64,000 nt of DNA from Candidatus Bathyarchaeota archaeon (GCA_963702095.1 OY969706.1:1312001-1376000), one strand, 5' to 3'; numbered from the stretch's first letter, positions 2,392-39,300 are shown. A program made the numbers and translations. The notes: generated from the letters alone by a model not told the origin.

Positions 2392-2570
2392 CTCTTTGTG
2401 TGGGTGTGGAGTTTTACGGTGCAACACATGGTTGTTTGAGATGGGATTTGCTTTTTGCCAATGCAATGCTTTTCAGCGCCCGTTTCGGTGTGGGAAAATC
2501 GATTTTCACCACACGCCATACATTGCTCAATGCATAACCCGTTGCCATGTGGGTGTGAAAGCATGTTGAG
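2392..2570 (+). repeat. Dispersed repeat family A, copy 1 (diverged)
   Basis: TGTGGGTGTGG...GTTTCGGTGTGG-N15-CCACACGCC...GTGTGAAAGCATG, colinear with copies at 15.6, 30.8 and 39.1 kb. Confidence 0.85.
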
Positions 2571-2703
2571 TAAGCATAAAAATCCACGGGCATTTCGTTT
2601 ATGCTGAAATGTTGGAAGCGAGCAACCACAAGGGTTGCCGCCGACTAAGCACTCAGGATTTAACAAGTAAATTATATAACCAAACAAACAAACTTATTTA
2701 GTT

Positions 2704-3489
2704 ATGGAAAGAATGGGGAAATACCTCTCAATAGTCTTAGTTTTAATCATAGCATCATCTAGTTGTCTTATTGTCAAATCTGCTGATGCTCAATCAATAT
2801 CTAAACCATCTGCGCCAGAGTTTACAGTTAGATATGTTGATTATTCATATGATGTTCCACCAACTTATGGAATAGACCAGTTTACAGGAAAAGAAACAAT
2901 AGTAAAAAATGGCTATCATGTAGAGAATAGGTCTTTTGAATTCACCATAAGAAACCAACCTTATACGCCCTACGAGGATTCACAGGGTAACAATATCCAT
3001 CTTTTCTATAACCTAAGATTCAAAGGGCATTTCGGAGCCGAATGGATGTACTTCCCCTTTCTTGACAATGGACAAGGCGTTCGCAGATTTGCAGCAGGAC
3101 TATATCAGGTATATGACCCAGACCTCGCAGCATCAAATTCTGCCTTTACAATATTATTAGAAAGTATACCCACCCTATTTTATGACCTACAGGATTATGA
3201 CAAAATGCCAAAAATCGGCGATGAGGTTGATTTTCAAGTACAAGCTGCAATAGGATATGTTAGTTATGCAGGGGATGGTTTCTATTCTTTAGCAGGACAA
3301 TCAAGCAGTTGGAGTAACACACAAACAATAAAAATTTCTGCTGTTTCAGCCTCTGTTTCACATTCTCCAAATCCGACGCCAACGCCTTCAGTTCCAGAAT
3401 TTACCCAAGTTGCAGTGATTTCTTTCTTTGTTTCTCTGCCTCTCCTTGCCCTTCTTGTAAAAAAGAGGTTCTTGTCTAAAGATTTATAA
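2704..3489 (+). CDS. Secreted surface protein with PEF-CTERM-like anchor
   Basis: Signal peptide, KPSAPEFTV motif, P/T linker, VPEF + TM helix + KKR tail; AT-rich. Confidence 0.85.
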   Translation: MERMGKYLSIVLVLIIASSSCLIVKSADAQSISKPSAPEFTVRYVDYSYDVPPTYGIDQFTGKETIVKNGYHVENRSFEFTIRNQPYTPYEDSQGNNIHLFYNLRFKGHFGAEWMYFPFLDNGQGVRRFAAGLYQVYDPDLAASNSAFTILLESIPTLFYDLQDYDKMPKIGDEVDFQVQAAIGYVSYAGDGFYSLAGQSSSWSNTQTIKISAVSASVSHSPNPTPTPSVPEFTQVAVISFFVSLPLLALLVKKRFLSKDL

Positions 3490-3549
3490 CTAGAAACGTA
3501 CAATGTAATTTCAGCAATTCGTCTCGAAAAAAATTACTTTGCCCTAAGG

Positions 3550-3598
3550 CTGGGACGGCGACATCATCCCCCGTCACAATAAGCGAATCCTCAACTAA
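3550..3598 (+). repeat. Hairpin direct repeat C, copy 2
   Basis: 37 bp identical to 2318-2354. Confidence 0.95.
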
Positions 3599-3635
3599 AG
3601 AAGGCAAATTCTAACTATGCTTTTTATCTTAAAAG

Positions 3636-3768
3636 CTGCTTTGCTTGTATTTTGTTCCTCAACCAACCTGCAACGCAACGCAGACACAGAAACCAAAACA
3701 GGTGTCGTAGTCAAACCCAAAGGTTGTTGTTGTGTATAGGGGATTTTCGGCAACAACAACTAAAGAAA
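3636..3768 (+). repeat. Dispersed repeat family B, full copy
   Basis: TGCTTG...CAACCAACCTGCA...GTTGTTGTTG-TGTATAGGGG-N7-GCAACAACAAC hairpin, shared with 46.1 and 57.4 kb. Confidence 0.85.
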
Positions 3769-3845
3769 AAAGCAAACGCCCAAACTTGATCCACTGCTTA
3801 AATAAGGGAGTTGCAGTCTTTTTCCCAGGCAAAGAAGGGATAAAC

Positions 3846-4082
3846 ATGAAAGTCGGCGTCTGCGGAATAGCATGCGAAAAATGCCCCAAAATGACCAAAG
3901 GAACCTGCCCCAACGGCTCAGTCGGTTGCGTTGCACGAGAGAACAGGTTCTGCCAAATCTGCAACTGCGCCCAACAAAAAGGCGTCCGATTCTGCTTTGA
4001 ATGCACCGAGTTCCCATGCGAAACCACCAAACAAGGCCCCATAAGCTACGGTTACTGCCAGTACCTTGCCGGTAAACAGTGA
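3846..4082 (+). CDS. Cys-rich DUF3795-like protein
   Basis: MKVGVCGIACEKCP...CQICNCA...FCFECTEFPC; ATG at 3846 is more plausible than 3732, which lies inside repeat B. Confidence 0.8.
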   Translation: MKVGVCGIACEKCPKMTKGTCPNGSVGCVARENRFCQICNCAQQKGVRFCFECTEFPCETTKQGPISYGYCQYLAGKQ

Positions 4083-4130
4083 AAGGGCTAGTTTTAAGTG
4101 ACTGCAACCAAACATATTAGTTGATTATTT

Positions 4131-5057
4131 ATGGCTGCCAAAGAGGTCCTCATAGAAGCCAAAGCCTTAACCAAAAAGTACGGCGAATTCACCGCAGTTG
4201 ACCACATAGACTTCGAAGTGTACAAAGGCGAATGCGTCGGTTTTTTGGGACCCAACGGAGCAGGCAAAACCACCACCGTTCGGATGATGTACTGTTTCTT
4301 GTTGCCCACTTCGGGGGAACTGCGAGTTGCCGGCAAAAGCGTTGGGAAGCAGTGTCGAGAAATCAAAGCCGTAGTCGGGGTTGCGCCTCAAGAGGACAAT
4401 TTGGACCCAGACTTCACAGTTATCAAGAACCTCACGGTTTATGGACGATACTTTGACCTCCCAAAAGAGGAGGTACTCAAACGAGCCGAGGAGCAACTCA
4501 AGTTTTTCCAGTTAGAGGAAAAACGCGATGTACCCATACTGGCGCTTTCCACAGGCATGAAACGCAGACTCATTTTTGCCCGTGCACTCATCAATCAACC
4601 GCAGATTCTGCTCTTAGACGAACCCACCACGGGGCTGGATCCTCAGGCGAGGCATCTGGTGTGGGATGAAGTGCGGCACCTCAAAAAACAGCAGGTAACC
4701 ATCATTTTAACCACGCATTACATGGATGAAGCCCAGATTCTCTGCGACCGCATCCTCATCGTAGACAGGGGCAAAATCATCGAGCAAGGCACACCCACGG
4801 AACTCATCAAGAAACACATCGGCAATGAAGTCCTAGAATTGGACAACGACGAAAAACTGATTCCTCTGCTTAAAGAGGCTTTTCCTTCGGCACGCATAGA
4901 GCGGCTGGGTGACCGCATGCAGGTTTTCACAGACCAACCGCACGGCGTCTTCGAAGATTTCCTGCACGTGCATAAAATGCAGAACGTTTCGATTCGAAAC
5001 GCCAACATCGAAGACGTATTCCTCAAACTGACGGGCAGGGGACTACGGGAAGAATGA
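4131..5057 (+). CDS. ABC-2 exporter ATP-binding subunit (NodI-like)
   Basis: Walker A GPNGAGKTT, signature LSTGMKRR, Walker B LLLDEPT. Confidence 0.9.
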   Translation: MAAKEVLIEAKALTKKYGEFTAVDHIDFEVYKGECVGFLGPNGAGKTTTVRMMYCFLLPTSGELRVAGKSVGKQCREIKAVVGVAPQEDNLDPDFTVIKNLTVYGRYFDLPKEEVLKRAEEQLKFFQLEEKRDVPILALSTGMKRRLIFARALINQPQILLLDEPTTGLDPQARHLVWDEVRHLKKQQVTIILTTHYMDEAQILCDRILIVDRGKIIEQGTPTELIKKHIGNEVLELDNDEKLIPLLKEAFPSARIERLGDRMQVFTDQPHGVFEDFLHVHKMQNVSIRNANIEDVFLKLTGRGLREE

Positions 5058-5905
5058 GCGAACCCCACCTCCGCAGTTCACCAGCCAAATTCTCCATCCC
5101 CAGACTCACCTATCGGGTCTGGAAGGTTTGGCGACGCAACGTCGATGTCTTCTTAAAAACCATCAAAGTCAACTTTTTACCCTCACTGCTTGAGCCAATT
5201 CTCTACTTGGTCGCGTTTGGCTTCGGCTTAGGCGGATTCATCCCCAACATAAACGGAGAATCCTACATCAACTTTATCGCACCCGCTTTGGTGGCAATTG
5301 CCATAATGAACGGCGCATTTTTCGAATGCACCTATGCCTCGTTTGTGCGCATGTATTTCCAGAAAACCTTCGACGCCATAGTCGCCACACCCGTGAGCGT
5401 GGAGGAAGTGGTTGCTGGCGAGTTGCTTTGGGGAGCCACCCGCGCCACCGCAAACGCCACCATCGTGTTGGTAGTAATCGCGATCGCAGGTTTCTTCACG
5501 CCGACGCCGCTGATTACTACGCCGCTGTTTGTGCTGGTGCCGCTAATCGCCTTCTTCAGCGGCTTAATGTTTAGTTCAATGGCTATGTGCTTCACTGCAG
5601 CTGCCCCAAACATTGACTTCTTCAACTACCCCGCTTTCCTTTTCTTAACCCCGATGTTCTTTTTGTGCGGAACCTTCTTCCCGCTTACCTCGCTGCCGGT
5701 TGCCGCGCAGGGTTTAGCCCTCTCGATTTTGCCCCTCACACAAGTTGTTAACTTCGCCCGTGGCGCAGTCACTGCATCGGTGGTGCCGATTCTGGGGTTG
5801 AGCACAACGTCGCTGATACTCTACAGTTTGGTCTGGGTGATTTTGGTCACGGTTTTCTTCTTCATCTTAAGCATTAATTTGATGAAGAAGCGTCTAACAA
5901 GCTAA
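5054..5905 (+). CDS. ABC-2 exporter permease (NodJ-like)
   Basis: About 6 TM helices, LLEPILYL and FFPL motifs, overlaps the ATPase stop. Confidence 0.9.
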   Translation: MSEPHLRSSPAKFSIPRLTYRVWKVWRRNVDVFLKTIKVNFLPSLLEPILYLVAFGFGLGGFIPNINGESYINFIAPALVAIAIMNGAFFECTYASFVRMYFQKTFDAIVATPVSVEEVVAGELLWGATRATANATIVLVVIAIAGFFTPTPLITTPLFVLVPLIAFFSGLMFSSMAMCFTAAAPNIDFFNYPAFLFLTPMFFLCGTFFPLTSLPVAAQGLALSILPLTQVVNFARGAVTASVVPILGLSTTSLILYSLVWVILVTVFFFILSINLMKKRLTS

Positions 5906-6825
5906 ACCACGATGCCTTTGACTTCAGCGGTTATAAGGTAAAACGCGGCTAACCCCTTCCATTTTCCCCATGCCTCCGCGATTGCCCGTGCTTCCGCCGC
6001 CTTAATGGGCACGCCGCCACAGTAGTAGGTAGAAATGACCCGCCGAATACCGAAGTCGTCTGCGGGCAACGCGTCAAGCCGTTGCATGCCACGGAGCATC
6101 GTTAACTCAGCCGTCCAAACGCCGATGCCCTTGATTTCGTCGAGTTCGGCAATTATGGCTTGTGGGTCCTGCTGGTTTTTCATGGCTTCCAAATCCAATT
6201 TGCCCTCCACAATCAACTCCGCTGCGCCGTAGATGTATTCGGCTTTGCGCTGGCTCAAACCGCACTCGCGGATGTCACTTATGCAGGCGGCTCTTATGTT
6301 TTGTGGGGAGGGATAAGCGTAGTAGGTTTGGCCGTTGATTTGTAGTTTGTCGCCGAATTTTTTGCAGAGGCGCTCTTCAAGGGTGTGGGCGACTTTGATG
6401 GAGATTTGCTGTTCCACAATCGAATCCACCAGCGCCTCAAACACAGTGGGGGTAGTGGGGTTTTTGAGTCCGTAGAGTTGCTGGGCGATTTTTGTTATGT
6501 TTGAGTCGCCGTGGATTTGCTTGTAGAAGCTGGTTAGGGGAAAGTTGAGGTTGAAGAGATAAGTTAATGCTTGCTCGGCGTCAGCCTTGTTTTTCGCTGA
6601 TAATGCTTTGCCCAAGTGGATTTCTACGGATAAATTGGGGTGCTCAACAGTTCCCGTCGAAGTCACACTGGCTAAAACAAGTACCTCACCCAACCGCAGC
6701 AGCTGCCGGAACACGCCTTTATGGTAGCTTCGAATTTGGGGGTCGCCGCTTCCAAAAATCTGGCATGTTAAATCAAAATCAAACGGTGCCACCGGGTTTA
6801 AAGTGAAGGTTTCTTTGGAAGCCAT
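5902..6825 (-). CDS. alkA: DNA-3-methyladenine glycosylase, AlkA family (HhH-GPD)
   Basis: IVEQQIS, HhH motif IKGIGVWTAE, LPADDFG. Confidence 0.88.
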   Translation of the reverse strand: MASKETFTLNPVAPFDFDLTCQIFGSGDPQIRSYHKGVFRQLLRLGEVLVLASVTSTGTVEHPNLSVEIHLGKALSAKNKADAEQALTYLFNLNFPLTSFYKQIHGDSNITKIAQQLYGLKNPTTPTVFEALVDSIVEQQISIKVAHTLEERLCKKFGDKLQINGQTYYAYPSPQNIRAACISDIRECGLSQRKAEYIYGAAELIVEGKLDLEAMKNQQDPQAIIAELDEIKGIGVWTAELTMLRGMQRLDALPADDFGIRRVISTYYCGGVPIKAAEARAIAEAWGKWKGLAAFYLITAEVKGIVV

Positions 6826-6917
6826 CCTGTTCAGCCTTGAATACGCATATTTGCCGCTTGTGCCGTATTAAAGATTTTTAACTCCCCGCGCAGTAAGAGC
6901 CCAATAGAGGCTCACAA

Positions 6918-7592: not shown

Positions 7593-7655
7593 GTGTTTGT
7601 TGTTTTCTAGTTTAAGATGAAGGCAGTGTCGCCCTTACTCTTCTCCTTCCTATGA

Positions 7656-7736
7656 GTTTGGCGGGCGGCTGTGTTTTGCTTTCTGCAATGGCAATGGACT
7701 GCTGGTTGGTTATGGCGCATTCCTCAAGCAGAACAG
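7656..7736 (-). repeat. Family B, left half without hairpin
   Basis: Reverse complement CTGCTTGA...CGCCATAACCAACCAGCA...GCAGA...AAAACACA...CCCGCCAAAC aligns without gaps to ~46069-46145. Confidence 0.8.
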
Positions 7737-7870
7737 AACACATTTCGGGCGGTTATCAGCGGCTCGTTTAGTTCCTGTTTGCACTGTTTTTAAGTAAATG
7801 TTAAAGCCCCAACCATCAACATTAAAGTGGAGGCTAGCCGACGTCACCTACCCGCCTTAACAATACTACA

Positions 7871-9154: not shown

Positions 9155-9214
9155 ACTTTTTTCTGGTTTTTGGGGCTTTTCATCTGTTTTTAGGTTTAGA
9201 TTTGCATACGCTTA

Positions 9215-9282
9215 AATATCATATGCGATATCATCTGTGATAATCAAATATGATATCAATAACGATATCAAAGGTGATATCA
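9215..9282. promoter_or_regulatory. Array of GATATC palindromes at ~12-bp spacing (probable PadR operator array)
   Basis: Sites at 9215 (AATATC), 9227, 9239 (GATAATC), 9252, 9264 and 9276, directly upstream of the PadR gene. Confidence 0.65.
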
Positions 9283-9284
9283 AA

Positions 9285-12602: not shown

Positions 12603-12603
12603 A

Positions 12604-14463: not shown

Positions 14464-14524
14464 CTCCAACGGTCATCTGATAGCACCAATATGCACAAAA
14501 ACGACCGCTTGCTTACTGTTGGGC

Positions 14525-15598
14525 ATGAGCCGCTTTACCATTAAGTCACCGGGTGTTTATGTTCAGAACCTACGAATTGGACCTCAACCCATCGAAGGCG
14601 TTCCGACAGCGACCGCCGCTTTTTTGGGGGAAACCCAGACGGGACCCACGTCGCCCACGCTGGTCACCAGTTGGCAGCAATACCAAGACGTATTCGGCGG
14701 TTTCTTCGGCATAGACAAGTACCTGCCTTATGCTGTTGAGGGCTTTTTTGGTAACGGCGGCAAACGCTGCTACATCTGCAAAGTAACTTGTGGTGATTTC
14801 GCTGGGGCTTTAGCCAAATTGGAGCCAATCGAAGAAGTATCCCTTCTGTACGCGCCAAACGCACAAGCCACCCCAAACCTCTGCAACATGCTCATTTCTC
14901 ATTGCGAGCGGCTCAAGCGGTTTTGCATCGTCGATTCACTAAAGGGCGAGGCACCATCAGAAGTTACAAAGCCACAGGCATCCGCCCATGCAGCCCTGTA
15001 TTATCCATGGATTTACGTTTTTCATGATGGCCAGAAGTGTTTGGTTCCGCCCGGCGGATACGTTGCAGGTGTTTACGCTCGCACGGATATTGGGCGTGGA
15101 GTCCATAAGGCGCCAGCTAACGAAGTTGTCAACGGCGCGGTAGACGTAGAGTTTGCCATAAGCAAAAGTCAGGGGGACAGTCTAAACCCACTTGGAGTTA
15201 ACTGCATACGCAATCTGGAGGGCAGGGGCATCCTTGTTTGGGGTGACAGAACCCTCTCAAGCGACCCCGAATACAAGTACATTAACGTTGAGCGACTGCT
15301 GATTTACGTTGAGCAATCTATTAAGCGTGGCACCGAATGGGTGGTATTTGAGCCAGATGCAGAGTCAACATGGGCTAAGGTGAAGATGCAAGTGCAGAAT
15401 TTTCTAAATCAGACATGGCAAAGCGGCATGTTGATGGGCACTAAACCGCAGGAAGCCTATTTTGTGAAGTGTGACCGAACCACCATGACCCAAAACGACA
15501 TCGATAACGGACGCCTAAACATACTAGTCGGCGTAGCACCGGTTAAACCCGCAGAGTTCCTCATCGTAAGAGTAAATCAAAAGGCTATGTACCAATAG
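14525..15598 (+). CDS. Contractile phage-tail/eCIS sheath protein (orphan)
   Basis: PGVYV, FFGNGG, AALYYPW, RGVHKAPAN, LNPLGVNCIR, VVFEP, FVKCDRTT, APVKPAEF. Confidence 0.93.
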   Translation: MSRFTIKSPGVYVQNLRIGPQPIEGVPTATAAFLGETQTGPTSPTLVTSWQQYQDVFGGFFGIDKYLPYAVEGFFGNGGKRCYICKVTCGDFAGALAKLEPIEEVSLLYAPNAQATPNLCNMLISHCERLKRFCIVDSLKGEAPSEVTKPQASAHAALYYPWIYVFHDGQKCLVPPGGYVAGVYARTDIGRGVHKAPANEVVNGAVDVEFAISKSQGDSLNPLGVNCIRNLEGRGILVWGDRTLSSDPEYKYINVERLLIYVEQSIKRGTEWVVFEPDAESTWAKVKMQVQNFLNQTWQSGMLMGTKPQEAYFVKCDRTTMTQNDIDNGRLNILVGVAPVKPAEFLIVRVNQKAMYQ

Positions 15599-15619: not shown

Positions 15620-15808
15620 AGAAGCAATCGATACATAGTTTCACATCCACACCGCGTCCGCTTCTGCGTGGAGGCATGTACGGCGTGTGGAGAAAAATGG
15701 ATATCCCACACCGAAACAGAGGCTGAAAACCGTTGCAAACCCAAAAAGCAGTTGCATTCAGTTGCCGTCTTGTGGTGCCCTGTAAACCGCCACACCCACA
15801 TAAAGAGA
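15620..15808 (-). repeat. Dispersed repeat family A, copy 2
   Basis: Gap-free colinear with 30800-30988 (offset 15180). Confidence 0.95.
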
Positions 15809-15866
15809 CAAAGGAACAACTACTTAAACGGGCCAAGGGTAAAAATAAGAAAGTGTCGGCTTGTTC

Positions 15867-16292
15867 TCACGTTTGGGTTTTGATGGTTCGGTAGGCAAAG
15901 TAAATTATCATTATACTCCAAATTGTCGTAATTCCGATTGCAGTGCTGGGGAAGAACACGTAAGTTGCAAACACCCGTTGTGTTACGGTGAGTGCGATGG
16001 CGAGGTATGGTGCCCATTTTAGATTTCTTCGCAGTCCGAAGTATATTATTGCAAATACTGCTGCAGCCACGAGTGCTTCAGAGACGACGATTGTGAATCC
16101 CAACCGGTAAATGCTCCACTGCGTAGCTGGAATCAACCAGATGCCAACAGCTATTAGGTCCAAGATTATGTTTGCCAGAACAAGACGGCTCAGTGCCTTA
16201 TGCGGTTTGGCACCATACTTACGCGCCGCAATTACTACAAGTACAATAGCTAAAACCGTGAAGAAAATAAGCAAGATTTCGTCTAAACGCAC
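15867..16292 (-). CDS. Hypothetical membrane protein
   Basis: 4-5 hydrophobic helices. Confidence 0.7.
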   Translation of the reverse strand: MRLDEILLIFFTVLAIVLVVIAARKYGAKPHKALSRLVLANIILDLIAVGIWLIPATQWSIYRLGFTIVVSEALVAAAVFAIIYFGLRRNLKWAPYLAIALTVTQRVFATYVFFPSTAIGITTIWSIMIIYFAYRTIKTQT

Positions 16293-28195: not shown

Positions 28196-30650
28196 CTACG
28201 TTTGCTTCTTCTTAATTACCCCTGCCAAAACCAAAGCCGTGGAAGCCACAATCAAAAGCAGCACCAAGACAAACGAAAACTCAGGCACTGTCGGCGTAGA
28301 TGACGGCTGGGTAATCGGTATATCCGTTGGGGTATTGACGGGTTGGGCTGGTGTCGGAGAAGATGTTGTGGTCGAAGTTGTCGGCGAAGTGGAGGCGTGT
28401 GGGTTTTGGGTTGCTTGGGGCAGTTGTAGAGTAACGGTGCAGCTGTATGGGACAGAAACAACGCCTGCGGTATCTTTGAATTCCACCGAAACCGTTTTGG
28501 CGCCATCGCCATCGGTCAGCATCCACTCTTTGAAGGGTGAGTAGGGCTCCCAACCTGTCCAGTCGCCGTCTTCGTTGGCAAATCGCATATTTGCCACTCC
28601 TGAAAGGGAATCCTCTGCGAAGAGGGATAGGCTGATTTGCCGTGTCTGGGTTTCTGTGACGCTGGGCGTTATTGAGCCTGTGGGAGCGGTCTTGTCCAGT
28701 TTAATGTTGGTTACGTTGACGCGGGGGAGTTTATAGAAGGTTTGTATCAGGGAGGTTCCAGAGGCTCCAATACGTCAAAGTGTTATCTGCGCCTTCGATG
28801 GTTATGGTGGGTTGCCCGTTTGCGGTCACGTTTTGGATGTCTTCGCCGTTTATTTGATAAAACGTCTCGTTTACCGCTGAGTCAGGCGCCAAGTTTATCG
28901 TGAAGTCGTCTGTATGCCACTGGTCTTGGCAGTCGTTGGCTACGATTGGCAATCGTGATAGGTTAACGGCAAAGTTGGCTGCTCCATCGTTTATCGTTAA
29001 GGTGTGTTTCCCCGCTGTTGTGATTGGAACAGTGATTGCAGTGTTAAAGCTGCCTGTGGCATCGACTGATGTGCTGGCGACGTTTACTCCATCCCAGAGC
29101 AGAGAAACCAAACCACTGCTTGGGTTGAACCATTGCCCCCTAATAGGCAAGTTATCACCGCTCTGCACCAACACTCCACTCGACAAATCAGTGCCGTTAC
29201 CGAACACCCCCTCTGCGGACACATTACCAAGCTGCGCTAAACCCCTACGGTATTCGACATAAGGCACAGTGGTGTTGTAGGCATATCCGTTGCTGTTGTC
29301 CACCGCACGAAAGACTATGTTATCGAAGAGTTGTGGGTTGTCGCCTGATGTGTTGTTTTGTAAAAGGTCGAGAGCATTCAGGCTGTAAGTAAAGTTTCCA
29401 GCGGTGGTTGCAATGTTGTTTGCTATAGTTGCCCATGACGAGGTAACTGGGTTGGCATAAGAGAGGTTCACTGAATCGCCCAAGAAACCTGAGCCGTTAA
29501 GTGTTATTGGTGTTCCCGCTGACCCCGAAGTAGGGGAAACGTAAAAGGATACTCCGAAATTAAATGTTAAGGGGCTGCCTAAACCTGTAACGCAGTCATA
29601 TCCTTGTGCGGCAGTGTATGCTCCGTTTGACCCGGAAACTATATCTCGGAAGTAGCTGGAATAGGTTGATGTTGCTTTCTGGTAAAGATTATTATTTATA
29701 GCAGAACACGCCAAGGCATGGATGGCAGCCCATTGAGGAGCACCAGCACTTGTGCCACCAATAGGATACCATAGGCCATCATAATAGACCGCCACCCCTG
29801 CACCAGCGTTGTAAGAGATATCAGGAACATAGCGTTTAGAGCCCGTTAACCCATAATCTCTCTGGTAATCAGGTATGGGTTCATACGCGCTAACGCCTCC
29901 ACCGCTGCCACTCCAACCTGTTTCTGAAACCGAGCCGTCACCATTAAAACTAAGCACCGTTCCTCCAACCGACACTACATTGGGCGAAACTGCCGGGTAA
30001 GTTATGCCTGCTCCGTCGTCTCCTGAAGAAGCGAAGAAAACAATACCTGGCTGGTCAAAATGATAATCCCACATTGCCTCATATGAAGGTTCATCTCCGA
30101 TAGTCCCCCAACTCATCGAAACCGCAACTACGTCTGGCTGACTTGTAGCGTAATCAATTGCTTGAAAAAGCGAGTTTGTATCAGCGCCTTTTGCTGTTAC
30201 CAATAGTATAGTTGCCTGAGGTGCGATGGCATGTGCCCACTCCACATCAAGACATGTCTCTTGAGGCCAGCTACTGCTTGGCGCTGTCGTTACTCCAGCC
30301 ATTTTGTGAACAATGAATTTGCCTGTACTATTATCTGGTAAACCATACTGATTACAGAAAACGGTATAATCGTCTAGAATTGTTGGCGTATCATAAGCGA
30401 CAATAATTGCTATTGTGCACCCGGCACCTCCTATTGAAGGCAGATTGTAGGCAGTTCTTATTTGGTTTGGAGAGTAGCCTTGGGGCGTAGAAGACCCGAT
30501 CAGAGGCGAAAAATGCATTGGGTGCACTAGCAAAATGTCTTGGGATGGCTCGGGCATTTCTTGTGAAGCCAGAGGCAGGGTTATAGAAATCAGTAAGAAT
30601 ATGATTGCTATGGCTGATATGGTTGGCTTGGCCGGGTTCACTATAATCAT
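28196..30650 (-). pseudogene. Secreted S53 (sedolisin/kumamolisin-like) peptidase with Ig-like domains and PEF-CTERM-like anchor, frameshifted near 28731
   Basis: ETCLDVEW, ASSGDDG, GGTSAGAP, YDCVTGLGSP; after NLL-stop another frame continues KLPRVNVTNIKLDKTAP...VPEF-TM-KKK. Confidence 0.8.
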
Positions 30651-30799
30651 TGTCCTGTTATGGTTGATTTGCCATGCCCAAATAACTGTTAGCTCTTACC
30701 TATGTAAAATGGCGTCAGCATTCTTTTATGCCTTATGAATTCCTAAGCTGTACTCTAAAAATCGCTTTACCGCTAATTAGTTTGTGATTAGTGTGAGGA

Positions 30800-30995
30800 A
30801 AAACCAGTCGATACATGCCCCCACATACACATCCAGTCCGCTTCAACATAGAGGCATGCTGGGCGTGTGGAGAAAAACTCTTATGCCACACCGAAACAGA
30901 CGCCAAAAACCGTTGCAAACCAAAAAAGCAAACGCCATCACTTGCGGTCTTGCGGCACCCCCTAAACCGCCACACCCACATAAAGAAAGAAAAAG
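30800..30995 (-). repeat. Dispersed repeat family A, copy 3
   Basis: Begins in the T-tract right after the asnS stop; colinear with the other copies. Confidence 0.95.
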
Positions 30996-30999
30996 GGTG

Positions 31000-32283
31000 T
31001 TAGGGGTAGAATCGTCTTGTGGTTCTTGGGAACGGTATGGCGTCGATGATGTTGTCTAAGTCAAGCATCCATACCAGCAGCCGCTCCACCCCCATGCCGA
31101 AGCCCACATGCGGCACCGACCCGTAGCGTCTTAGGTCTATGTACCACTCGTAGTCTTCCGGTTTTAAGCCCTGCTCTTTCATGCGGGCGATGAGGATGTC
31201 TTTGTTGTCTTCTCTTGAGCCGCCAGTGCTGATTTCACCTATGCGGGGCACCATCATGTCAACCGACATTGCGACTTCGGGGTGTTCTTTGTAGGTTTTA
31301 CAGTAGAAGGCTTTAATCGCGGTTGGGTAATCGTAGACAAAGAAAGGCTTGCCGAAGTCTTCCGCCAAAACTTTTTCGTCTTCATAGCCGAGGTCCGCTC
31401 CCCAATCCAATGCGGGGTTTTTGGGTTTGAGGCGTTCGATGGCTTCTTTGTAGGTTATGCGTGGAAAGGGTGCTTTGACGGCTTTTAGTTTCTCTATGTC
31501 TGCGCCGAGTTCTTTGAATTCCATCACGCATCGGGCGGCAACGGTTTGGCAGATGTACTCCATTAAGCCCTCTTCGAATCTCATAAGGTCGCCCATATCC
31601 GCAAATGCCCATTCGCCCTCCATATGCCAGTACTCAGTTAAATGCCGAATTGTGCGGCTCTTCTCAGCCCGGAAAGACGGAGCAATACAGTAGACTTTTT
31701 CAAGTGAGAACATGAGGATTTCAAGGTAGAGTTGGCTGCTCTGGGTTAAGTATAGTTCTTGGTCAAAGTATTTCAGCGCAAACAGTGTGCTGCCGCCTTC
31801 AACCGCCGCAGAAATAAACATCGGCGGAGAAACTTCGATGAACGCCTGTTGTTCAAAGTATTCACGGGCAGCCTGCAAGGTTTCTGCGCGTACCTTCATA
31901 ACAAGGTTCATTTTTCGGCTACGCAGCCAAAGATGACGCATATCACGGATAAATTCCTCGCTTTTATCCTTGCTGATGGGGAAATTCTCGGCTAAGCCTA
32001 CGATTTTTAGGTTTTCTGCGCTGACTTCGAAACCGCCGGGTGCCCTTGTGTCAGCGTGGACGGTGCCTTCTAGAGACAGCGAGGATTCGATTGTGAGTTT
32101 CCCAGCTTCGCTCCAGCACGGATTGTCTTTTTTTATTGTGGATTGGATTACGCCTGTGGAGTCGCGGATTAGGATGAAGATGAGTGATTTGCCTTCACGT
32201 TTGCGGTAGACCCAGCCGCGAACGGTTGCTTTTTGGTCTGTGCATTTGCCTGCCAATATTTCGCTTATTTTTACGAGCGTCAT
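31000..32283 (-). CDS. asnS: Asparagine--tRNA ligase
   Basis: OB-fold, YLTQSSQLYLE, FRAEKSRTIRHLTEYW, PHVGFGMGVER. Confidence 0.9.
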   Translation of the reverse strand: MTLVKISEILAGKCTDQKATVRGWVYRKREGKSLIFILIRDSTGVIQSTIKKDNPCWSEAGKLTIESSLSLEGTVHADTRAPGGFEVSAENLKIVGLAENFPISKDKSEEFIRDMRHLWLRSRKMNLVMKVRAETLQAAREYFEQQAFIEVSPPMFISAAVEGGSTLFALKYFDQELYLTQSSQLYLEILMFSLEKVYCIAPSFRAEKSRTIRHLTEYWHMEGEWAFADMGDLMRFEEGLMEYICQTVAARCVMEFKELGADIEKLKAVKAPFPRITYKEAIERLKPKNPALDWGADLGYEDEKVLAEDFGKPFFVYDYPTAIKAFYCKTYKEHPEVAMSVDMMVPRIGEISTGGSREDNKDILIARMKEQGLKPEDYEWYIDLRRYGSVPHVGFGMGVERLLVWMLDLDNIIDAIPFPRTTRRFYP

Positions 32284-32359
32284 CGCGGATCAACTGTTTG
32301 CAGTATATCTTGTTTCCGAACCTAAATGCATATCGATTAGGACCGCTGCAGATTTGCCG

Positions 32360-33601: not shown

Positions 33602-33729
33602 TGCAGATAAACTCAGGGCAGAATTATTTAAACAGAGTTTGTACAGAGCGGTTTCTGTGACATTGGATTATCTTTTTATCCCACAATTCTTAAATCGCCC
33701 CTGCAATGAGGTAAAGTAGACTAACGAAG

Positions 33730-35100: not shown

Positions 35101-35111
35101 GGCGCCCAAAA

Positions 35112-35408
35112 TTAGAGTTTCATGATTTGTGCGTGGGGAACGCCTTCTATTTTGAGCACTGCGTCCGGATGTACATATCCCTCCGCGATAGCCTTCCCAA
35201 CGCACATTTCACCCACCAGATTCACGATGGTTGAGTTGCCGATTAACCCGATGGCTTCCTCAACAGTGGCTTTTCGGCCCTTGTAGAACTCGTCTTTTAT
35301 GTGGAAAACAATTTTGCCTTCACGTAGCGTCTTCCCTAACAAGTCGCAGTCGCATACCGCTAAGACAACGTTTCCGCCAACTTTTTTGACGTTAAGGTAA
35401 ACATCCAA
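35112..35408 (-). CDS. DUF424 family protein
   Basis: LAVCDCDLLGK...EFYKG...TIVNLVG...GVPHAQ. Confidence 0.85.
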   Translation of the reverse strand: MDVYLNVKKVGGNVVLAVCDCDLLGKTLREGKIVFHIKDEFYKGRKATVEEAIGLIGNSTIVNLVGEMCVGKAIAEGYVHPDAVLKIEGVPHAQIMKL

Positions 35409-35420
35409 AGCCGGATTCGC

Positions 35421-35831
35421 CTATAACTGTTTAACTGAAGACCGCGCGCCGCAAGCATTACAAACCAAAAACGTGAGGCGTTTTTCCTTCAGGATTTTTG
35501 TATCTGGACGCTTACATACTGGGCATATAACATAGCTTTCCTGGTACCTTTGCAGTAGGCGTTCAAAACTGTCCGTTCGAAATTTGCCTTGGAATATGGC
35601 GCGGGACTCATGGAATGTCGCTGCAGTTGCCATTTCGCGAGTCAAAAACTTCAGCAGATGCTGAGGATCGCGGTCGAGGGCGTCAGCAATTTCTTTAAAG
35701 TTAGAGATTACTGTGCGCATGCCGACGGTTTGAAGCATGATTCGGGGCATTTCCAAGCGCTCTTTTTTTGTTGAAACCTCGGGCATTTGCTCGCAGGCAC
35801 GTTTAAGCAGATCATCGTAGTTGAAGGTCAT
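35421..35831 (-). CDS. Translation initiation factor aIF-2 beta
   Basis: YDDLLKRA, NFKEIADAL, CPVCKRPDT...CNACGA. Confidence 0.95.
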   Translation of the reverse strand: MTFNYDDLLKRACEQMPEVSTKKERLEMPRIMLQTVGMRTVISNFKEIADALDRDPQHLLKFLTREMATAATFHESRAIFQGKFRTDSFERLLQRYQESYVICPVCKRPDTKILKEKRLTFLVCNACGARSSVKQL

Positions 35832-35981
35832 GTTTCCACTTCACCCAATCAAGGTCACCGCCTATATTTAAAATTACTATGAGCACCATACCCTTATGAT
35901 GGTTTTACACTTATTTTTTAGTAACTCATATAAATTCGAAAGTCACTTCGGTATGCATTATCTCCACTAGAAGGCTAACAT

Positions 35982-36950
35982 TTGACAGAGAAACAAACGC
36001 CCAGTCAAATAACAAACATCAATACCCAGATTGACAAACTCAAGGAGCAATCCCGAGAAGCAAACGCTCAGATAAAAAAATTCGTCGAGAAAAGAGATGA
36101 GCTCCACGAGAAGGTTCGAAAAACCCGCGAGGAAGTCAACCAACTTAAAGTTGAACGGGATGCTCTCAACCAGAAAGTCAAGGAACTAAAGCAGCAACGA
36201 GACGCGATCAGGGTTAATGTTACGCCAATTATGGATGAAGTGAAGGGTATCAACGATAAAATCGAAGGGTTAAAAAAGAATCTGCCAAAAGTTAGCCAAC
36301 GAGAACTCAAAAAGGAACATGACGCTATCGAATGGAAAATCTCCACTACCTCTCTTGACCTCCAAGAAGAAAAACACCTCATAGAACAAGTTAAAGAAAT
36401 CGAAATCCAACTTAGCGGTTACAAAAAAATCGATAATCAACGCAAGAAATTAAAGGACCTCTATGAACACAAAAAAACATTCGATGCACAAGCAGACGTT
36501 TACCATAAGGAATTAACCGATTTAGCCAAGAAAAGCCAAGACCTCCACGCTGTCATGATGGAGAAACTTGATGCTATGAAGAAAGACCGCGCGGAAGCCG
36601 ACGCCCTGCATCAATCGTTTGTTAACGCCAAAGAACAGAACAACGGCGTTTACGAGCAAATCCGACTGTTAATCGCTCAATCCACAGGCATCAGGGCATC
36701 CATGCGCGACCAGTATCAAACTTACCGCAGAGAAGACGAAGCCAGACGTAAAGATTTTGACGAAAAACGTAAACAACAAGACGATAAACGCAAACAGGAA
36801 CAAGCGGAACGTGCAGTCAAAGAAGCCGCGATTAAAGAAAAAATCGGTTCAGAAGCACGCGAAAAACTAAACCGCGGGGAAAAAGTCAACTGGGAAGAAT
36901 TCGCATTGATGCTTGGCGACGAAGATGACGAGGCGGAAACGCAAGCTTAA
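35982..36950 (+). CDS. Archaeal coiled-coil protein (COG1340-like)
   Basis: Heptad repeats, IEWKISTTSLDLQEEK, KLNRGEK. Confidence 0.8.
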   Translation: MTEKQTPSQITNINTQIDKLKEQSREANAQIKKFVEKRDELHEKVRKTREEVNQLKVERDALNQKVKELKQQRDAIRVNVTPIMDEVKGINDKIEGLKKNLPKVSQRELKKEHDAIEWKISTTSLDLQEEKHLIEQVKEIEIQLSGYKKIDNQRKKLKDLYEHKKTFDAQADVYHKELTDLAKKSQDLHAVMMEKLDAMKKDRAEADALHQSFVNAKEQNNGVYEQIRLLIAQSTGIRASMRDQYQTYRREDEARRKDFDEKRKQQDDKRKQEQAERAVKEAAIKEKIGSEAREKLNRGEKVNWEEFALMLGDEDDEAETQA

Positions 36951-36985
36951 AGTGATGTTGCTGCAATATTGAGATAGCGATTTCG

Positions 36986-38218
36986 ATGGCTAAACGGGAA
37001 ACGCAACAGCAGACGCAAAAGCGTATCCTCATTTTATGTGTTGACAGAGATGGCGATCTCGAGACTAAAGCAGCCATTAAAACGCCGCTTCTGGGCAGAA
37101 CCGCCAACCTAGACGGCGCAGTCGCCCTTGCACTAAAAGATCCCGAGGAACCCGACGCCAACGCCATGTTCGAAGCCGTCCGACTCTACGACCGCTTACA
37201 CGACGAGAAGACACCTGATGAAGTCTTTGAAGTCGCCACTGTATCAGGCACCGACATAGGTGGTGTAAGCGCCGACCGAAAACTCGTGGCGGAACTAAAC
37301 AGCCTCCAAGAATCGTTTGGTGCCAACGAAGTGATCTTGGTCAGCGACGGCTACTCTGACGAAGCCGTTTTGCCGCTGGTTGAGTCCCGTGTACCTGTCT
37401 CATCCGTGCGCCGCATCGTCATCAAACACAGTGAATCCATCGAGGAAACCGCTGCGGTCTTCACCAAATATGTCCGCCTCTTGGTGGATAATCCCCGATA
37501 TGCCCGCGTGGCATTGGGATTACCTGGTATATTGGTGCTTATCTTCGGTGTTCTTTGGGGCATCAACTACTTCATTCCGGGCGCCATATTCTGGTACGGC
37601 ATCGCAATCCTCATTGTGATTGGCGGGTTTCTGCTGCTTAAAGGCTTCGGCGTAGACCGCGCCACCAAAAACTTTTATCATTGGGCAAGAGACTATGATC
37701 CGCCAGCTCTCCCAATCCAAATATCCAACTATACCATCATCGCAGGTATTCTCTGCATTGCTGTGAGTGTTTATTTGGGTGTAGCAAACGTTATAAAAAA
37801 CGTGCCTTCACCGGTGGATGTAGCCGGCTGGTTAAGTGCCGCGCCCAGAATCGCCACCTTCTTCATCAAAGGCCTCGACGTCTTACTCATAGTAGGCATA
37901 TGCATCGTTCTGTTAGGCAGAAGTGTACGCCTCTACTTCGAAAGAGATTCTCGCTTGCTCCGCAACGTCGCCTTGATCGTATCGGTTGTGTGGGCTCTTT
38001 GGATACTAGAGGGAACCGCAAACATCATCTACAGTATCTTTAACCCCGCAAACGCTGGAGTACCAGTTGTAGGCTTCGAGAACCCAGACTTCGCCAACTT
38101 CATATTTACCATAGTGGTCGGTATCTTAATCGGCATAGCTTCGGTGTTACTAATTCACATCGTTAACCGTTCAACCAAGGGCTTCTTTAAGAGAGAAGAA
38201 AAAACTGAGGAACTCTAA
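36986..38218 (+). CDS. DUF373 family membrane protein
   Basis: LILCVDRDGD, DPEEPDANA, VSDGYSDE. Confidence 0.88.
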   Translation: MAKRETQQQTQKRILILCVDRDGDLETKAAIKTPLLGRTANLDGAVALALKDPEEPDANAMFEAVRLYDRLHDEKTPDEVFEVATVSGTDIGGVSADRKLVAELNSLQESFGANEVILVSDGYSDEAVLPLVESRVPVSSVRRIVIKHSESIEETAAVFTKYVRLLVDNPRYARVALGLPGILVLIFGVLWGINYFIPGAIFWYGIAILIVIGGFLLLKGFGVDRATKNFYHWARDYDPPALPIQISNYTIIAGILCIAVSVYLGVANVIKNVPSPVDVAGWLSAAPRIATFFIKGLDVLLIVGICIVLLGRSVRLYFERDSRLLRNVALIVSVVWALWILEGTANIIYSIFNPANAGVPVVGFENPDFANFIFTIVVGILIGIASVLLIHIVNRSTKGFFKREEKTEEL

Positions 38219-38314
38219 CCCGTCTTGGGTTCGGAACTTAGGTGAGTAAGCTTTAATTGAAACCCCAAAGGTTAACCTCTACAATAGACGTCGTGCATAT
38301 GCGAGGACCATTCA

Positions 38315-39109
38315 ATGCTTGAGAAAATGCTTTCTTTTATCGGCGCTTACAGGCTTTATGAGAAATGGCTGTGGCAGCAGGTTAAGAACGGCGTAAAACC
38401 AGAGCATATCGCCATAATCTTAGACGGCAACAGAAGATGGGCAAACCAGCAGGAAACGCATCCGTTTTTGATGGGCGATAAATGGGGTCACAGCGACGGC
38501 GCCGACACGGTTGAGCAACTGCTGGATTGGTGCCACCTACTCGACGTGAAATACGTGACGCTCTACACTTTCTCAACAGAGAACTTTTCTAGGCACTCTG
38601 ATGAAGTTACCAAAATTATGCAGATTGCTGAGGAGCGGTTCCATAAACTCTTAAAAGACGAACGCATTCACCGAGACAAAATCCATGTTAAAGTCATAGG
38701 CAGAGTAAACCTCTTGCCGCAGAGCCTCCAAGACGTGATTGCGGAGCTTGAAGCGGCAACTGCAACCTATGACTGTTACTTCTGGAACTTTGCCTTCGCT
38801 TATGGCGGCAGAGCAGAAATAGTGGACGCCGCAAAAACCATCGCTAAAAAAGTACAGAACAAAGAAATAGAAATCGACGACATCACAGAGAGCACCTTTG
38901 AAAAATACCTCTACACATCACACATGAACAAGGACCCGGACATGATCATTCGCACCTCAGGCGAAGAACGCCTCAGCGGCTTTCTACTCTGGCAAGCAGC
39001 TTACAGTGAACTGCTGTTTTTAGACGTGTATTGGCCTGACTTCCGCCTAATCGACCTGCTAAGGGCAATCAGGGTTTTCCAGCATCGTAAACGCCGATTC
39101 GGCGCATAA
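38315..39109 (+). CDS. uppS: cis-Prenyltransferase (polyprenyl diphosphate synthase)
   Basis: HIAIILDGNRRW, FSTENF, IRTSGEERLSGFLLWQ, RRFG. Confidence 0.95.
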   Translation: MLEKMLSFIGAYRLYEKWLWQQVKNGVKPEHIAIILDGNRRWANQQETHPFLMGDKWGHSDGADTVEQLLDWCHLLDVKYVTLYTFSTENFSRHSDEVTKIMQIAEERFHKLLKDERIHRDKIHVKVIGRVNLLPQSLQDVIAELEAATATYDCYFWNFAFAYGGRAEIVDAAKTIAKKVQNKEIEIDDITESTFEKYLYTSHMNKDPDMIIRTSGEERLSGFLLWQAAYSELLFLDVYWPDFRLIDLLRAIRVFQHRKRRFGA

Positions 39110-39113
39110 ACAA

Positions 39114-39300
39114 TTTTTCTTTCTTTATGTGGGTGTGGCGGTTTACGGGGTGCCACAAGACGGCTTGGGAAAAGTTGCATTCAACCATTGCAACGTTTTT
39201 TGGCGTCTGTTTTGGTGTAGAATACGTATTTTTCTCCACACCCTGTACATGGCTCTATGCAGGGGCAAGCCAGTGTGGATGTGAAAGCATGTATCTTTTG
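39114..39300 (+). repeat. Dispersed repeat family A, copy 4
   Basis: TTTATGTGGGTGTGGCGGTTTA...GATGTGAAAGCATGTATC right after the uppS stop. Confidence 0.93.

Follow-up and report, generated by a model that had tools for sequence, protein, structure and literature searches.

The REP elements and BIMEs of Enterobacteria and Pseudomonas are intergenic sequences present in hundreds of copies, in which palindromic modules are arranged in mosaics and which are associated with RAYT transposases. Each REP unit is an imperfect palindrome of 20-40 nt with a conserved head tetranucleotide, and gyrase and IHF are known to bind BIMEs. MITEs are non-autonomous, multi-copy elements of 100-300 bp with subfamilies and truncated copies, and PATEs are non-autonomous derivatives of IS200/IS605. 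The intergenic mosaic elements of Neisseria are bounded by inverted repeats of the dRS3 type, and Correia elements carry terminal inverted repeats with a TA duplication. Bathyarchaeia belong to the uncultured archaea that are most abundant in soils, peat and sediments; to our knowledge, almost nothing is known of their non-coding DNA or mobile elements. MITEs also occur in archaea, namely in Sulfolobus and haloarchaea. A review of the subject is available (PMC10969869).

Here, we analyze a repeat, family A, in a 64,000-nucleotide stretch of a Candidatus Bathyarchaeota genome, referred to below as the window. With a probability of roughly 0.58, we interpret family A as a non-coding, non-autonomous dispersed repeat of the REP/BIME/MITE kind within a Bathyarchaeia lineage.

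Copies, extent and genome-wide abundance

The window contains four copies of family A, all located where the initial annotation had placed them, with a mean column identity of 76% across their alignment. Their coordinates, like those of the other features in Table 1, identify the positions discussed below; those of the family A copies were converted from nhmmer and model matches and are approximate. The genome-wide nhmmer collection proposed by the initial annotation established that the four copies belong to a real family. A profile built from them produced 113 matches at E<1e-3 in the 2,937,366-bp genome, 95 of which are near full length, and a rebuilt family A profile also produced 113 matches, at E<1e-5, with 93 full-length copies. 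The host is a soil-type archaeon, its genome represented by a single contig of 2.94 Mb. This recurrence far exceeds chance, and the median pairwise identity among copies is 70%.

Near-identical pairs match over a stretch that begins with the T/C tract and ends ~15-20 nt beyond the last CATGTATC; this defines a unit of ~190-200 bp instead of the ~172 bp first estimated. The pyrimidine tract, previously regarded as preceding flank, belongs to the element and travels with its copies: near-identical pairs share it, and it is missing at empty uppS sites and at one G000 site. On the other hand, the empty asnS site of G023 holds a T/C tract that closely resembles the 5' tract of the element and ends in the same CTTTA, which is easier to reconcile with a target site or a remnant than with a tract that invariably belongs to the element.

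A sister family, C/D, accounts for 180 matches in the same genome, 166 of them full length. In total, 289 short-repeat regions cover 46,166 bp, and 183 of these regions are not family A; the two related families represent ~290 copies and ~1.6% of the genomic DNA.

Table 1. Positions in the window of family A and C/D copies, of the parts of copy A4, and of two neighboring genes
Feature	Position	Strand	Remarks
Family A copy A1	2385..2580	+	3' end is the 'CATGTTGAGT...A-run' variant
Family A copy A2	15620..15813	-	Between convergent ORFs 14519-15598 (+) and 15867-16292 (-)
Family A copy A3	30800..30994	-	Begins right behind the asnS stop, in asnS orientation
Family A copy A4	39114..39308	+	Begins 5 nt past the uppS stop, in uppS orientation
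5' T/C-rich tract ending CTTTA (A4)	39114..39127	+	In nearly all copies; counted as element
Terminal direct repeat, 5' copy, ATGTGGGTGTGG (A4)	39127..39138	+	
Dyad 1, TGTGGC..GCCACA, variable loop (A4)	39134..39157	+	Stem kept as sequence
Central T-rich module, TTGC-T-run-GCAACG-T-run-GCGTCTG (A4)	39170..39209	+	Common to C/D; junction of the A/C-D chimera
Dyad GGTGTRG..loop..CTCCACAC (A4)	39213..39241	+	
Terminal direct repeat, 3' copy, GTGTGGATGTGAA, then GCATGTATC (A4)	39273..39295	+	
C/D copy	3636..3770	-	
C/D copy	7603..7737	+	
C/D copy	46068..46199	-	
C/D copy	57393..57527	+	
asnS (asparagine--tRNA ligase)	31000..32283	-	Upstream of A3; NCBIfam TIGR00457, 425 bits
uppS (polyprenyl diphosphate synthase)	38315..39109	+	Upstream of A4; NCBIfam TIGR00055, 258 bits

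Internal architecture and mosaic structure

The dyads described by the initial annotation are present in family A, in the forms TGTGGC..GCCACA, TGC-N11-GCA, GTGTGG..CCACAC and CATGG..CCATG, but they are conserved as sequence blocks and not through compensatory change. Across 93 copies with an overall identity of 70%, numerous columns reach an invariance of 97% or more; the TGTGG/CCACA words, the T-runs and the CATG dyads hardly change, and the intervening stretches are free to vary within a fixed length. TGTGG-type words occupy fixed positions, five as direct and two as inverted words, and both ends of the element bear an ATGTGGRTGTG-type direct repeat. Past GCATGTATC, the copies diverge into alternative tails. 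The strongest periods of the conservation profile are ~24.6, 21.5 and 10.1 nt, a GGYRCC hexamer shows a two-state TG/CA swap, and the + strand contains several runs of at least five T. In an orthologous G000/G007 pair, the near-invariant blocks are retained, in contrast to the variable blocks and the neighboring spacer, which differ.

A protein-binding platform would fit these sequence-conserved TGTGG/CCACA blocks. One version of this idea is a host-maintained DNA platform whose TGTGG/CCACA array is bound by a putative chromatin, topoisomerase or partition-type protein; selection would keep the element at gene ends, and its multiplication would be secondary. The arrangement of five direct and two inverted words with fixed-length variable spacers and the periods of the conservation profile speak for such a role, together with the TG/CA swap, which is expected of a symmetric duplex site. 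The gene-independent orientation and the reoccupation of gene ends described below point in the same direction, and we return to this reading with the distribution among relatives.

Families A and C/D form one superfamily. They have a central module in common, and their shared plan comprises a T/C-rich 5' tract, an interchangeable first palindrome, the shared T-rich center and a GTGG..CCAC palindrome. Where the two families adjoin, C/D lies upstream of a co-directional A copy in 10 of 11 cases, and in the one chimera found, C/D positions 2-97 are fused to A positions 92-200. A third of the A copies are followed by ~60 extra nt, termed module B, which is preceded by A in 33 of its 40 matches. 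Truncated, internally deleted and chimeric family A copies also occur, as does a 'solo' junction; recombination among copies yields arrays, chimeras and internal deletions.

Coding capacity and RNA structure

Family A could be read as a multi-copy gene for a small protein, encoded either by a ~60-codon + strand ORF starting at the ATG of the element or by a ~80-codon - strand ORF with a hydrophobic N-terminus and a start in module B. The long-form consensus is indeed open in one frame per strand, and its conserved ends coincide with an ATG and a TAA. However, no conserved ORF was found on either strand. ORFs from the element ATG vary between 1 and 119 codons among 91 copies, with frequent frameshifts, and single-base indels occur between copies. 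Many copies close the minus-strand frame ending at the conserved TAA no more than 5 codons from the stop; across 91 copies, this frame stays open for at least 60 codons in 26%, less than the other two frames (36% and 48%). Nor does the variability follow codon periodicity, as period-3 power ranks 61 of 87. Broken ORFs, absent periodicity and indels refute the small-protein gene, and its probability is practically nil.

The initial annotation also considered a structured non-coding RNA, an idea that found no support in the structural analyses: judging from the aligned copies, family A appears to show no sign of being folded RNA. The Rfam comparison that it had suggested returned no match to family A (Rfam 15), only two tRNAs being recognized in the window; the best sub-threshold E-values of two copies, 0.94 and 0.67, are far below gathering scores. 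RNAalifold applied to 51 sequences gave -2.6 kcal/mol with a covariation term of -0.56, and 1 of 14 pairs showed a double change. A mutual-information scan was negative for an RNA stem, its top pairs being mostly not base pairs, and the variable stem pair of C/D pairs at chance level (0.63 observed, 0.61 expected). Mismatches in the dyad 1 stem are of the G-T as well as the A-C type, so that neither strand is favored. Folding z-scores are weak, at -1.3 (+) and -2.0 (-). The mean MFE of 31 copies is -56 (+) versus -37 (-) kcal/mol, and RNAalifold with ribosum gives -42 (+) versus -31 (-), but the G/T-rich composition is by itself sufficient to account for the lower values of the + strand.

These results bear on another alternative, in which family A is a family of small RNA genes that have multiplied in the genome as 'mobile sRNA genes', every one equipped with an archaeal promoter and oligo-T terminators. 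An A/T box would directly precede the T/C tract, and transcripts would begin close to the first palindrome and end at internal or 3' T-runs. Read by eye, many copies show a weak, A/T-rich GGGnAAATyG-type box immediately before the T/C tract, and the multiple + strand T-runs, the blocks retained in orthologous copies and the + strand fold, more stable in absolute terms, agree with this view, as do the gene-independent orientation and the copies in divergent spacers reported in the following section. The absent covariation, the modest z-scores and the composition effect, the two types of stem mismatch and the missing Rfam match count against it, and the promoter box itself is a by-eye reading. 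We consider small RNA genes an unlikely, though still credible, explanation. The strong conservation of the blocks in old copies is just as compatible with a host function, as RNA or as DNA, as with selfish spread.

Gene context and orientation

Gene context was assigned from our own crude ORF calls, inside which 24 of the 166 full-length C/D copies landed, leaving 142 classified. The adjacency of two window copies to asnS and uppS, in the orientation of these genes, was confirmed: matches to TIGR00457 and TIGR00055 identify both genes, and the elements begin ~5-20 nt from their stops. Across the genome, the median distance from a gene 3' end is 56 nt to the 5' end of family A and 161 nt to its 3' end. 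Convergent spacers are over-represented, with 29 of 95 A and 44 of 142 classified C/D copies versus 19% of all spacers, and divergent spacers also hold copies (16/95 A and 30/142 classified C/D). In tandem-gene contexts, 28 family A copies are co-oriented and 22 anti-oriented, the corresponding values for C/D being 30 and 38; the orientation of both families is independent of the neighboring genes. The earlier suggestion that the element targets terminators is therefore accurate in that its 5' end lies near gene 3' ends, but not further, since the T-tract travels with the element and tandem orientation is unbiased.

Search for a mobilizing enzyme and transposon hallmarks

As the initial annotation had noted, there are no clear terminal inverted repeats: an inverted-repeat scan of two window copies and their flanks revealed only internal dyads and copy-specific pairs, and the ends of the element form a direct repeat. 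Target-site duplication is absent, the longest word shared by the flanks of the same copy averaging 5.96 nt versus 5.92 +/- 0.10 for mismatched flanks (93 copies). The Pfam families Y1_Tnp (PF01797), OrfB_IS605 (PF01385), TnpB zinc-ribbon (PF07282), RVT_1 and DEDD_Tnp_IS110 have 0 matches in the genome; of 14 genomes used as a positive control, 6 to 8 gave matches in the searches for the first three (PF01797: 6/14). A self-comparison found no high-copy IS in the genome, with 46 HSPs of at least 400 bp, a count that lists each duplicated stretch from both sides. No longer element with family A ends was found in this genome either, as the 20 partial matches never pair left and right within kilobases. 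Tyrosine recombinases, with 7 matches, 5 of them above the cut-off, were the only mobilizing-type enzymes to turn up in the genome, and no link between them and the repeats was shown.

Elements with neither TIR nor TSD are expected under the hypothesis of a PATE-type derivative of IS200/IS605, in which a Y1 HUH transposase would recognize subterminal hairpins, mobilize the element in single-stranded form and insert it 3' of a short target. The palindrome ~7-10 nt inside the 5' end, the position of the A, C/D and module B junctions, each behind a T-rich ...TA, and the CTTTA at the end of one empty site are consistent with it. Against it stand the 0 matches to the three IS200/IS605-related families despite their positive controls, the lack of a longer element with these ends, the empty uppS sites without a T/C tract, and the ends themselves, which are direct repeats and not matching hairpins. 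A PATE-type origin is, in our assessment, highly improbable.

If family A is a dispersed repeat of the REP/BIME/MITE kind, as we favor, its invariant blocks would be putative recognition sites for a trans-acting protein, either a copying enzyme or a host DNA-binding protein. New copies would arise through a cut- or copy-and-paste or a conversion-type process that leaves no target duplication, and the element would not primarily be a folded RNA.

Gain, loss and spread among relatives

Among 80 related genomes, 6 have a repeat on the 3' side of uppS, A in 3 and C/D in 3, always in uppS orientation and starting no more than ~30 nt from the stop, and most of the others have two tightly convergent genes in its place. 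When empty uppS loci were aligned, 10 of 15 reached the conserved end of the convergent gene ~10-15 nt after the stop, without a T/C tract. The uppS-linked copies of relatives are not the closest kin of A4: one ranks 11 of 19, and the other is absent from 66 matches. A and C/D substitute for each other at four orthologous gene ends, and in copy-rich relatives the same gene ends are repeatedly occupied by either family. G007, the closest relative examined, has a C/D copy between the flank and the orthologous A copy, and G000 lacks that C/D copy. The comparison of filled and empty sites advocated by the initial annotation thus reveals sites that differ between species, but the compared relatives yielded no clean filled/empty pair of alleles in which both junctions could be aligned; synteny often breaks at the elements, even relative to the closest relative.

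Of the 4186 copy pairs, whose median identity is 70%, five are at least 90% identical (94-99%), and both near-identical pairs with correctly registered flanks (2 of the five) lie in unrelated flanks. For comparison, genes of different species in the genus are 64-71% identical. Within the genus, family A was detected in 55 of 120 genomes, the other 65 giving no match. At the order level, it was found in 7 of 151 genomes (G000 included): 6 of the 35 further genomes from the same taxonomic family contain it, compared with 0 of 115 from 11 other families. Copies are gained and lost between species in intergenic DNA, mostly beside gene 3' ends, and the distribution is patchy within one genus.

Presence or absence at orthologous sites, truncated and chimeric copies, pairs with 94-99% identity and patchiness make the non-autonomous mobile element, one of the initial proposals, the best-supported reading. 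The same distribution weighs against the host-maintained DNA platform, as 65 of 120 genomes of the genus do without the family, truncated and chimeric copies are common, and only 6 of 80 uppS ends are occupied, which means that no individual site is essential. No protein partner was identified for such a platform, and we rate it as improbable.

Significance and comparison with known systems

Because these repeats mark synteny breaks and come and go at gene ends, A and C/D probably influence how genomes rearrange and how 3' ends are regulated in this lineage, and short-read assemblies of the lineage will break at them. The lack of inverted ends, of target duplication and of an HUH, DDE, DEDD or RT gene makes these families a concrete place to seek an archaeal recombinase or sRNA class, that is, a candidate lead to an unrecognized recombinase or an unrecognized class of small RNA genes. 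A bolder proposal, which we regard as speculative and rather improbable, is that the superfamily of A and C/D represents a new type of archaeal mobile element without inverted ends, target duplication or known transposase. In one variant, an unrecognized recombinase would read the TGTGG direct repeats and the junction formed by the T/C tract and ...TA; in the other, self-contained promoter-plus-sRNA genes would copy themselves beside gene ends, which would imply ~290 small RNA genes per genome under selection.

Among described systems, family A resembles REP/BIMEs in being non-coding, intergenic, mosaic and lineage-restricted, and in its location at gene 3' ends, in convergent spacers and at points of rearrangement. 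It differs from them in its unit of ~190-200 bp with several blocks and no 20-40-nt palindrome with a fixed head, in its archaeal host, in ends composed of direct repeats plus a T/C tract, and in that no RAYT/Y1 gene was found in the genome (PF01797). With MITEs, it shares the size class, the non-autonomous, multi-copy and non-coding nature, presence/absence polymorphism, subfamilies and truncated copies; unlike them, it has neither TIR nor TSD, and this genome has no parent IS bearing the same ends. Similarly to PATEs, family A combines the lack of TIR and TSD with palindromes near its ends and a strand-asymmetric sequence, whereas the genome has no TnpA(Y1)/TnpB matches, the element terminates in direct repeats, and a fixed target in the flanks was not demonstrated. 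Compared with the mosaic and Correia elements of Neisseria, its sequences are unrelated, belong to another domain of life, and have neither dRS3-type inverted repeats nor a Correia-type TIR, but both form ordered intergenic arrays of different modules and chimeras through shared segments. The underlying principle, that of dispersed mosaic intergenic repeats, is already familiar.

Copies and organization of family A

The four look-alike stretches of the window (A1 to A4) are genuine copies of one family, as the initial annotation had proposed, with a mean column identity of 76% over ~190 aligned columns. A profile built from them recovered 113 matches at E<1e-3 across the whole genome of the window (G000; one contig of 2,937,366 bp, 46.8% G+C, on which the window occupies 1,312,001-1,376,000), 95 of which were near full length, and the profile rebuilt from those matches returned 113 at E<1e-5, comprising 93 full-length and 20 partial copies. 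The near-constant length despite divergence, noted at the outset for the window copies, was also borne out: among 92 aligned copies, the median pairwise identity is 70% (5-95% range, 61-78%) and the length is almost unchanged.

Conservation begins within a pyrimidine-rich stretch (the T/C tract) ending in CTTTA, which is followed by ATGTGGGTGTGG, a TGTGGC..GCCACA dyad and a T-rich central module (TTGC, T-run, GCAACG, T-run, GCGTCTG). A GTGTGG..CCACAC dyad, a CATGG..CCATG dyad, a second GTGTGGATGTGA and a terminal GCATGTATC complete the element. Near-invariant blocks are interleaved with blocks that vary freely in sequence while keeping a fixed length, and variability along the element peaks at periods of ~24.6, 21.5 and 10.1 nt, with no peak at 3 nt. 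The termini are direct repeats rather than inverted ones; the reported absence of clear terminal inverted repeats held in the two window copies examined.

Beyond GCATGT, copies carry alternative tails, one of which leads to module B, an additional ~60 nt beginning with TTAGCG. This module has 40 matches in the genome, 33 of them directly 3' of an A copy in the same orientation and seven without an adjacent A; it follows one third of the A copies, and its full form is present at none of the four window copies.

Three further features were observed among the copies. Columns 43-44 of alignment A2 (window 39150-39151 in copy A4) switch jointly between TG and CA, converting GGTGCC to its own reverse complement, GGCACC (a GGYRCC site), as would be expected of a symmetric duplex site rather than of an RNA stem. 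At two “solo” junctions (G000 1722343, minus strand, and 1511559, plus strand), the 3' tail directly joins the 5' T/C tract and direct repeat, the product that recombination between the two terminal direct repeats should leave. A recurring stretch (..GTTGCTCTGCCG..CCTCTCCCCT..) lies ~25-40 nt before some 15 A copies in G000, for instance before positions 380727, 968890, 1971124 and 2891206, and in one case inside 85%-identical sequence collinear with the related genome G007; this stretch could represent another repeat or the conserved gene 3' end of a paralogous family.

A sister family and mosaic elements

A sensitive self-comparison of the genome delimited 289 short-repeat regions totaling 46,166 bp. 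Of these, 183 are not family A, and most of them belong to a sister family, C/D, with 180 genome matches, 166 of them full length at ~135 bp each. Its elements start with a T-run ending in CTA, carry a first palindrome in two versions that are unrelated in sequence, continue into a central module common to both families (GGCGGYTG, T-run, ..CTGCGTCTG) and end with a TTGTGG..CCACAA dyad. In 10 of the 11 places where A and C/D lie less than 150 nt apart, the C/D copy stands immediately before A, and the two are oriented alike. One chimera joins C/D model positions 2-97 to A positions 92-200 within the common module.

Repeat copies in the window, near-identical pairs in the genome and gene ends at which the two families replace each other
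Feature	Location	Strand	Remark
A1	window ~2385-2580	+	
A2	window 15620-15813	-	
A3	window 30800-30994	-	
A4	window 39114-39308	+	
C/D copy	window 3636-3770	-	
C/D copy	window 7603-7737	+	
C/D copy	window 46068-46199	-	
C/D copy	window 57393-57527	+	
Near-identical inverted A pair	G000 571936-572130 / 579609-579804	- / +	7.5 kb apart, 5' ends inward
Near-identical inverted A pair	G000 1628909-1629079 / 1632371-1632541	- / +	3.3 kb apart, 5' ends inward
A/C-D replacement	uppS		G000 vs G007
A/C-D replacement	asnS		G000 vs G007
A/C-D replacement	gene end		A in G014, C/D in G000
A/C-D replacement	one further site		G007 vs G000

Genomic setting and distribution

Gene context was taken from crude ORF calls with repeats masked. 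Among the 95 full A copies, 29 occupy convergent spacers, a type that makes up 19% of all spacers, 50 occupy tandem spacers (28 in the orientation of the genes and 22 against it) and 16 occupy divergent ones. The 5' end of the element is the one nearer to gene 3' ends: its median distance is 56 nt (n=57), versus 161 nt for the element's 3' end (n=51), and it is the nearer end in 21 of the 29 convergent copies. In the window, A3 directly follows asnS and A4 directly follows uppS, each oriented as its gene, which confirms the placement noted at the outset. Genome-wide, TCTCTTTA is present 165 times against 114 expected; A copies account for ~55 of these sites, and the word is hence no terminator motif of general use. 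C/D copies lack an orientation bias toward genes (30 co-oriented, 38 anti-oriented, 44 convergent, 30 divergent, with 24 of the 166 copies inside crude ORF calls).

Among neighboring genes in the window, A1 is adjoined by a 624-aa ORF (26-1900, minus strand) with NosD-like parallel beta-helix repeats, and no NCBIfam match was obtained for the large ORFs at 28731-30650 (minus), 14519-15598 (plus) and 2704-3489 (plus).

Using a sequence-only model from 51 copies, we detected family A in 55 of 120 genomes of the genus (E<=0.001), many with at least 20 matches, nearly all full length. At the order level, 151 genomes were sampled, and 7 of them, including G000, match at E<=1e-5. The six others belong to the family of G000, which is represented by 35 further genomes (5 of 12 from the genus and 1 of 6 from one other genus), and the element was not found in the 115 genomes searched from 11 other families. 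The host is archaeal: G000 encodes a TFIIB-type factor, and the public sequences closest to the window's uppS carry the labels Bathyarchaeia or Bathyarchaeota, with Bathycorpusculum more distant.

Coding, RNA and transposon readings

Protein coding was considered and rejected: the consensus is open in one frame per strand, but individual copies are broken. Plus-strand ORFs from the ATG of the element scatter from 1 to 119 codons, and the minus-strand frame ending at a conserved TAA stays open for at least 60 codons in 26% of 91 copies, below the other two frames. The variability of the element is without codon (3-base) periodicity.

The structured non-coding RNA that the initial annotation had envisaged found no support, as there is no Rfam match, no covariation, and folding z-scores are weak. 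At gathering scores, Rfam detected only two tRNAs in the window and no A copy; below threshold, the best E-value, on two A copies, was 0.67. RNAalifold on 51 copies from several genomes gave -2.6 kcal/mol and 14 pairs, one of them with a double change. The mutual-information scan returned mostly non-pairing partners, and both it and the all-column helix scan are uninformative, since a G/T-rich sequence with repeated TGTGG words can self-pair in many registers. Single-copy z-scores average -1.3 on the plus and -2.0 on the minus strand (31 of 92 copies, mononucleotide shuffles), and the stems show mismatches of the G-T as well as the A-C type, which favors neither strand. An apparent compensatory change in the C/D 3' hairpin (TTGTGG/CCACAA versus TTGAGG/CCTCAA) failed on counting, the variable position being paired at 0.63 versus 0.61, the chance level.

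These data also bear on the main rival reading, in which family A would be a set of small RNA genes, each driven by a promoter of its own. Such genes would accord with an orientation independent of neighboring genes, with the conservation of sequence blocks and with an A/T box that we judged by eye to lie upstream of A, but the lack of covariation speaks against them.

Searches for the hallmarks of a classical transposon were likewise negative. There is no target-site duplication, the shared flank word measuring 5.96 nt versus 5.92 +/- 0.10 for mismatched flanks, and genome searches for Y1_Tnp, OrfB_IS605, the TnpB zinc ribbon, RVT_1 and DEDD_Tnp_IS110 gave zero matches each. Genome self-BLAST revealed no multi-copy IS. 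Tyrosine recombinases yielded seven matches, five over the cut-off, with no link to the repeats shown. Judged from these searches, family A is not a classical transposon derivative.

Gain, loss and turnover between genomes

At the uppS 3' end, 6 of 80 related genomes carry an element within ~30 nt of the stop (three A and three C/D), all oriented as uppS. In 10 of 15 aligned empty loci, the conserved end of a convergent gene lies within ~10-15 nt after the stop, without a T/C tract; the element, tract included, is therefore extra DNA. The window's uppS copy does not have its nearest relatives among the A copies linked to uppS in other genomes, which speaks for recurrent gain or fast replacement and not for a single inherited copy. 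At four orthologous gene ends (see table), A and C/D substitute for each other, and downstream of asnS the related genome G014 has an inverted A copy.

In another relative, G023, the empty asnS end carries a T/C tract that terminates in CTTTA and closely resembles that of the element; it is either left over from an element or hints at target preference. This site at first made the tract look like flanking sequence, a view countered by the uppS alignment, by one G007/G000 junction and by near-identical pairs. Together, these comparisons argue that the tract belongs to the element; the G023 asnS case, however, runs the other way.

G007 is the closest relative examined, with flanks 83-90% identical to those of G000. 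Synteny-based empty sites are limited, with gene identity at 64-71% for most genus members and several G007 comparisons non-collinear. Several A copies occupy the same place in both genomes; one full G007 copy is an internal-deletion form in G000, and one C/D copy stands in G007, but not in G000, between a gene and a common A copy. The two flanks of a G007 copy often map to separate sites in G000, beside other repeats, so that synteny breaks at the elements. In a G000/G007 orthologous A pair, the conserved blocks are retained while the variable blocks and neighboring spacer have diverged, which points to resident copies being under constraint or undergoing conversion.

Within G000, 5 of 4186 A pairs are 94-99% identical. 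For two with correctly registered flanks, identity runs from the T/C tract to 6-20 nt beyond CATGTATC, and the sequences on either side are unrelated. Such pairs result from recent copying or conversion and mark the limits of the repeat unit. A composite transposon was ruled out for the inverted pairs, which enclose ordinary genes only (TFIIB, SUI1, TrmB and a PQQ-repeat protein; a CbbQ-type AAA protein and VWA). Separately, G007 contigs C4 and C100 each end with an A copy in the same orientation, and their flanks are 26 nt apart in G000 (~912058-912084), which implies a larger insertion in G007 bounded by two direct A copies; its content spans a contig gap.

Nature of the element and comparison with known repeats

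Family A is multi-copy, non-coding, intergenic, gained and lost between species, mosaic, recombining and located at rearrangements. The weight of evidence favors a dispersed repeat of the REP/BIME/MITE kind that is non-autonomous and specific to this lineage. Its near-invariant TGTGG/CCACA blocks, held at fixed spacing and retained in old and orthologous copies, are most simply viewed as putative recognition sites for a protein, which would be either the mover or a host DNA-binding factor. In the accessible parts of the literature on Bathyarchaeia intergenic repeats and archaeal MITEs, we found no description of A or C/D elements, and the two families present dispersed mosaic repeats in a new lineage.

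The defining features of the known classes set family A apart from each of them. MITEs are defined by terminal inverted repeats, target-site duplications and a parent IS, REP/BIME elements by a short palindromic unit and a RAYT, and IS200/IS605-derived PATEs by Y1/TnpB, and family A shows none of these in G000. Consequently, it would work like these repeats without being a member of any of their classes.
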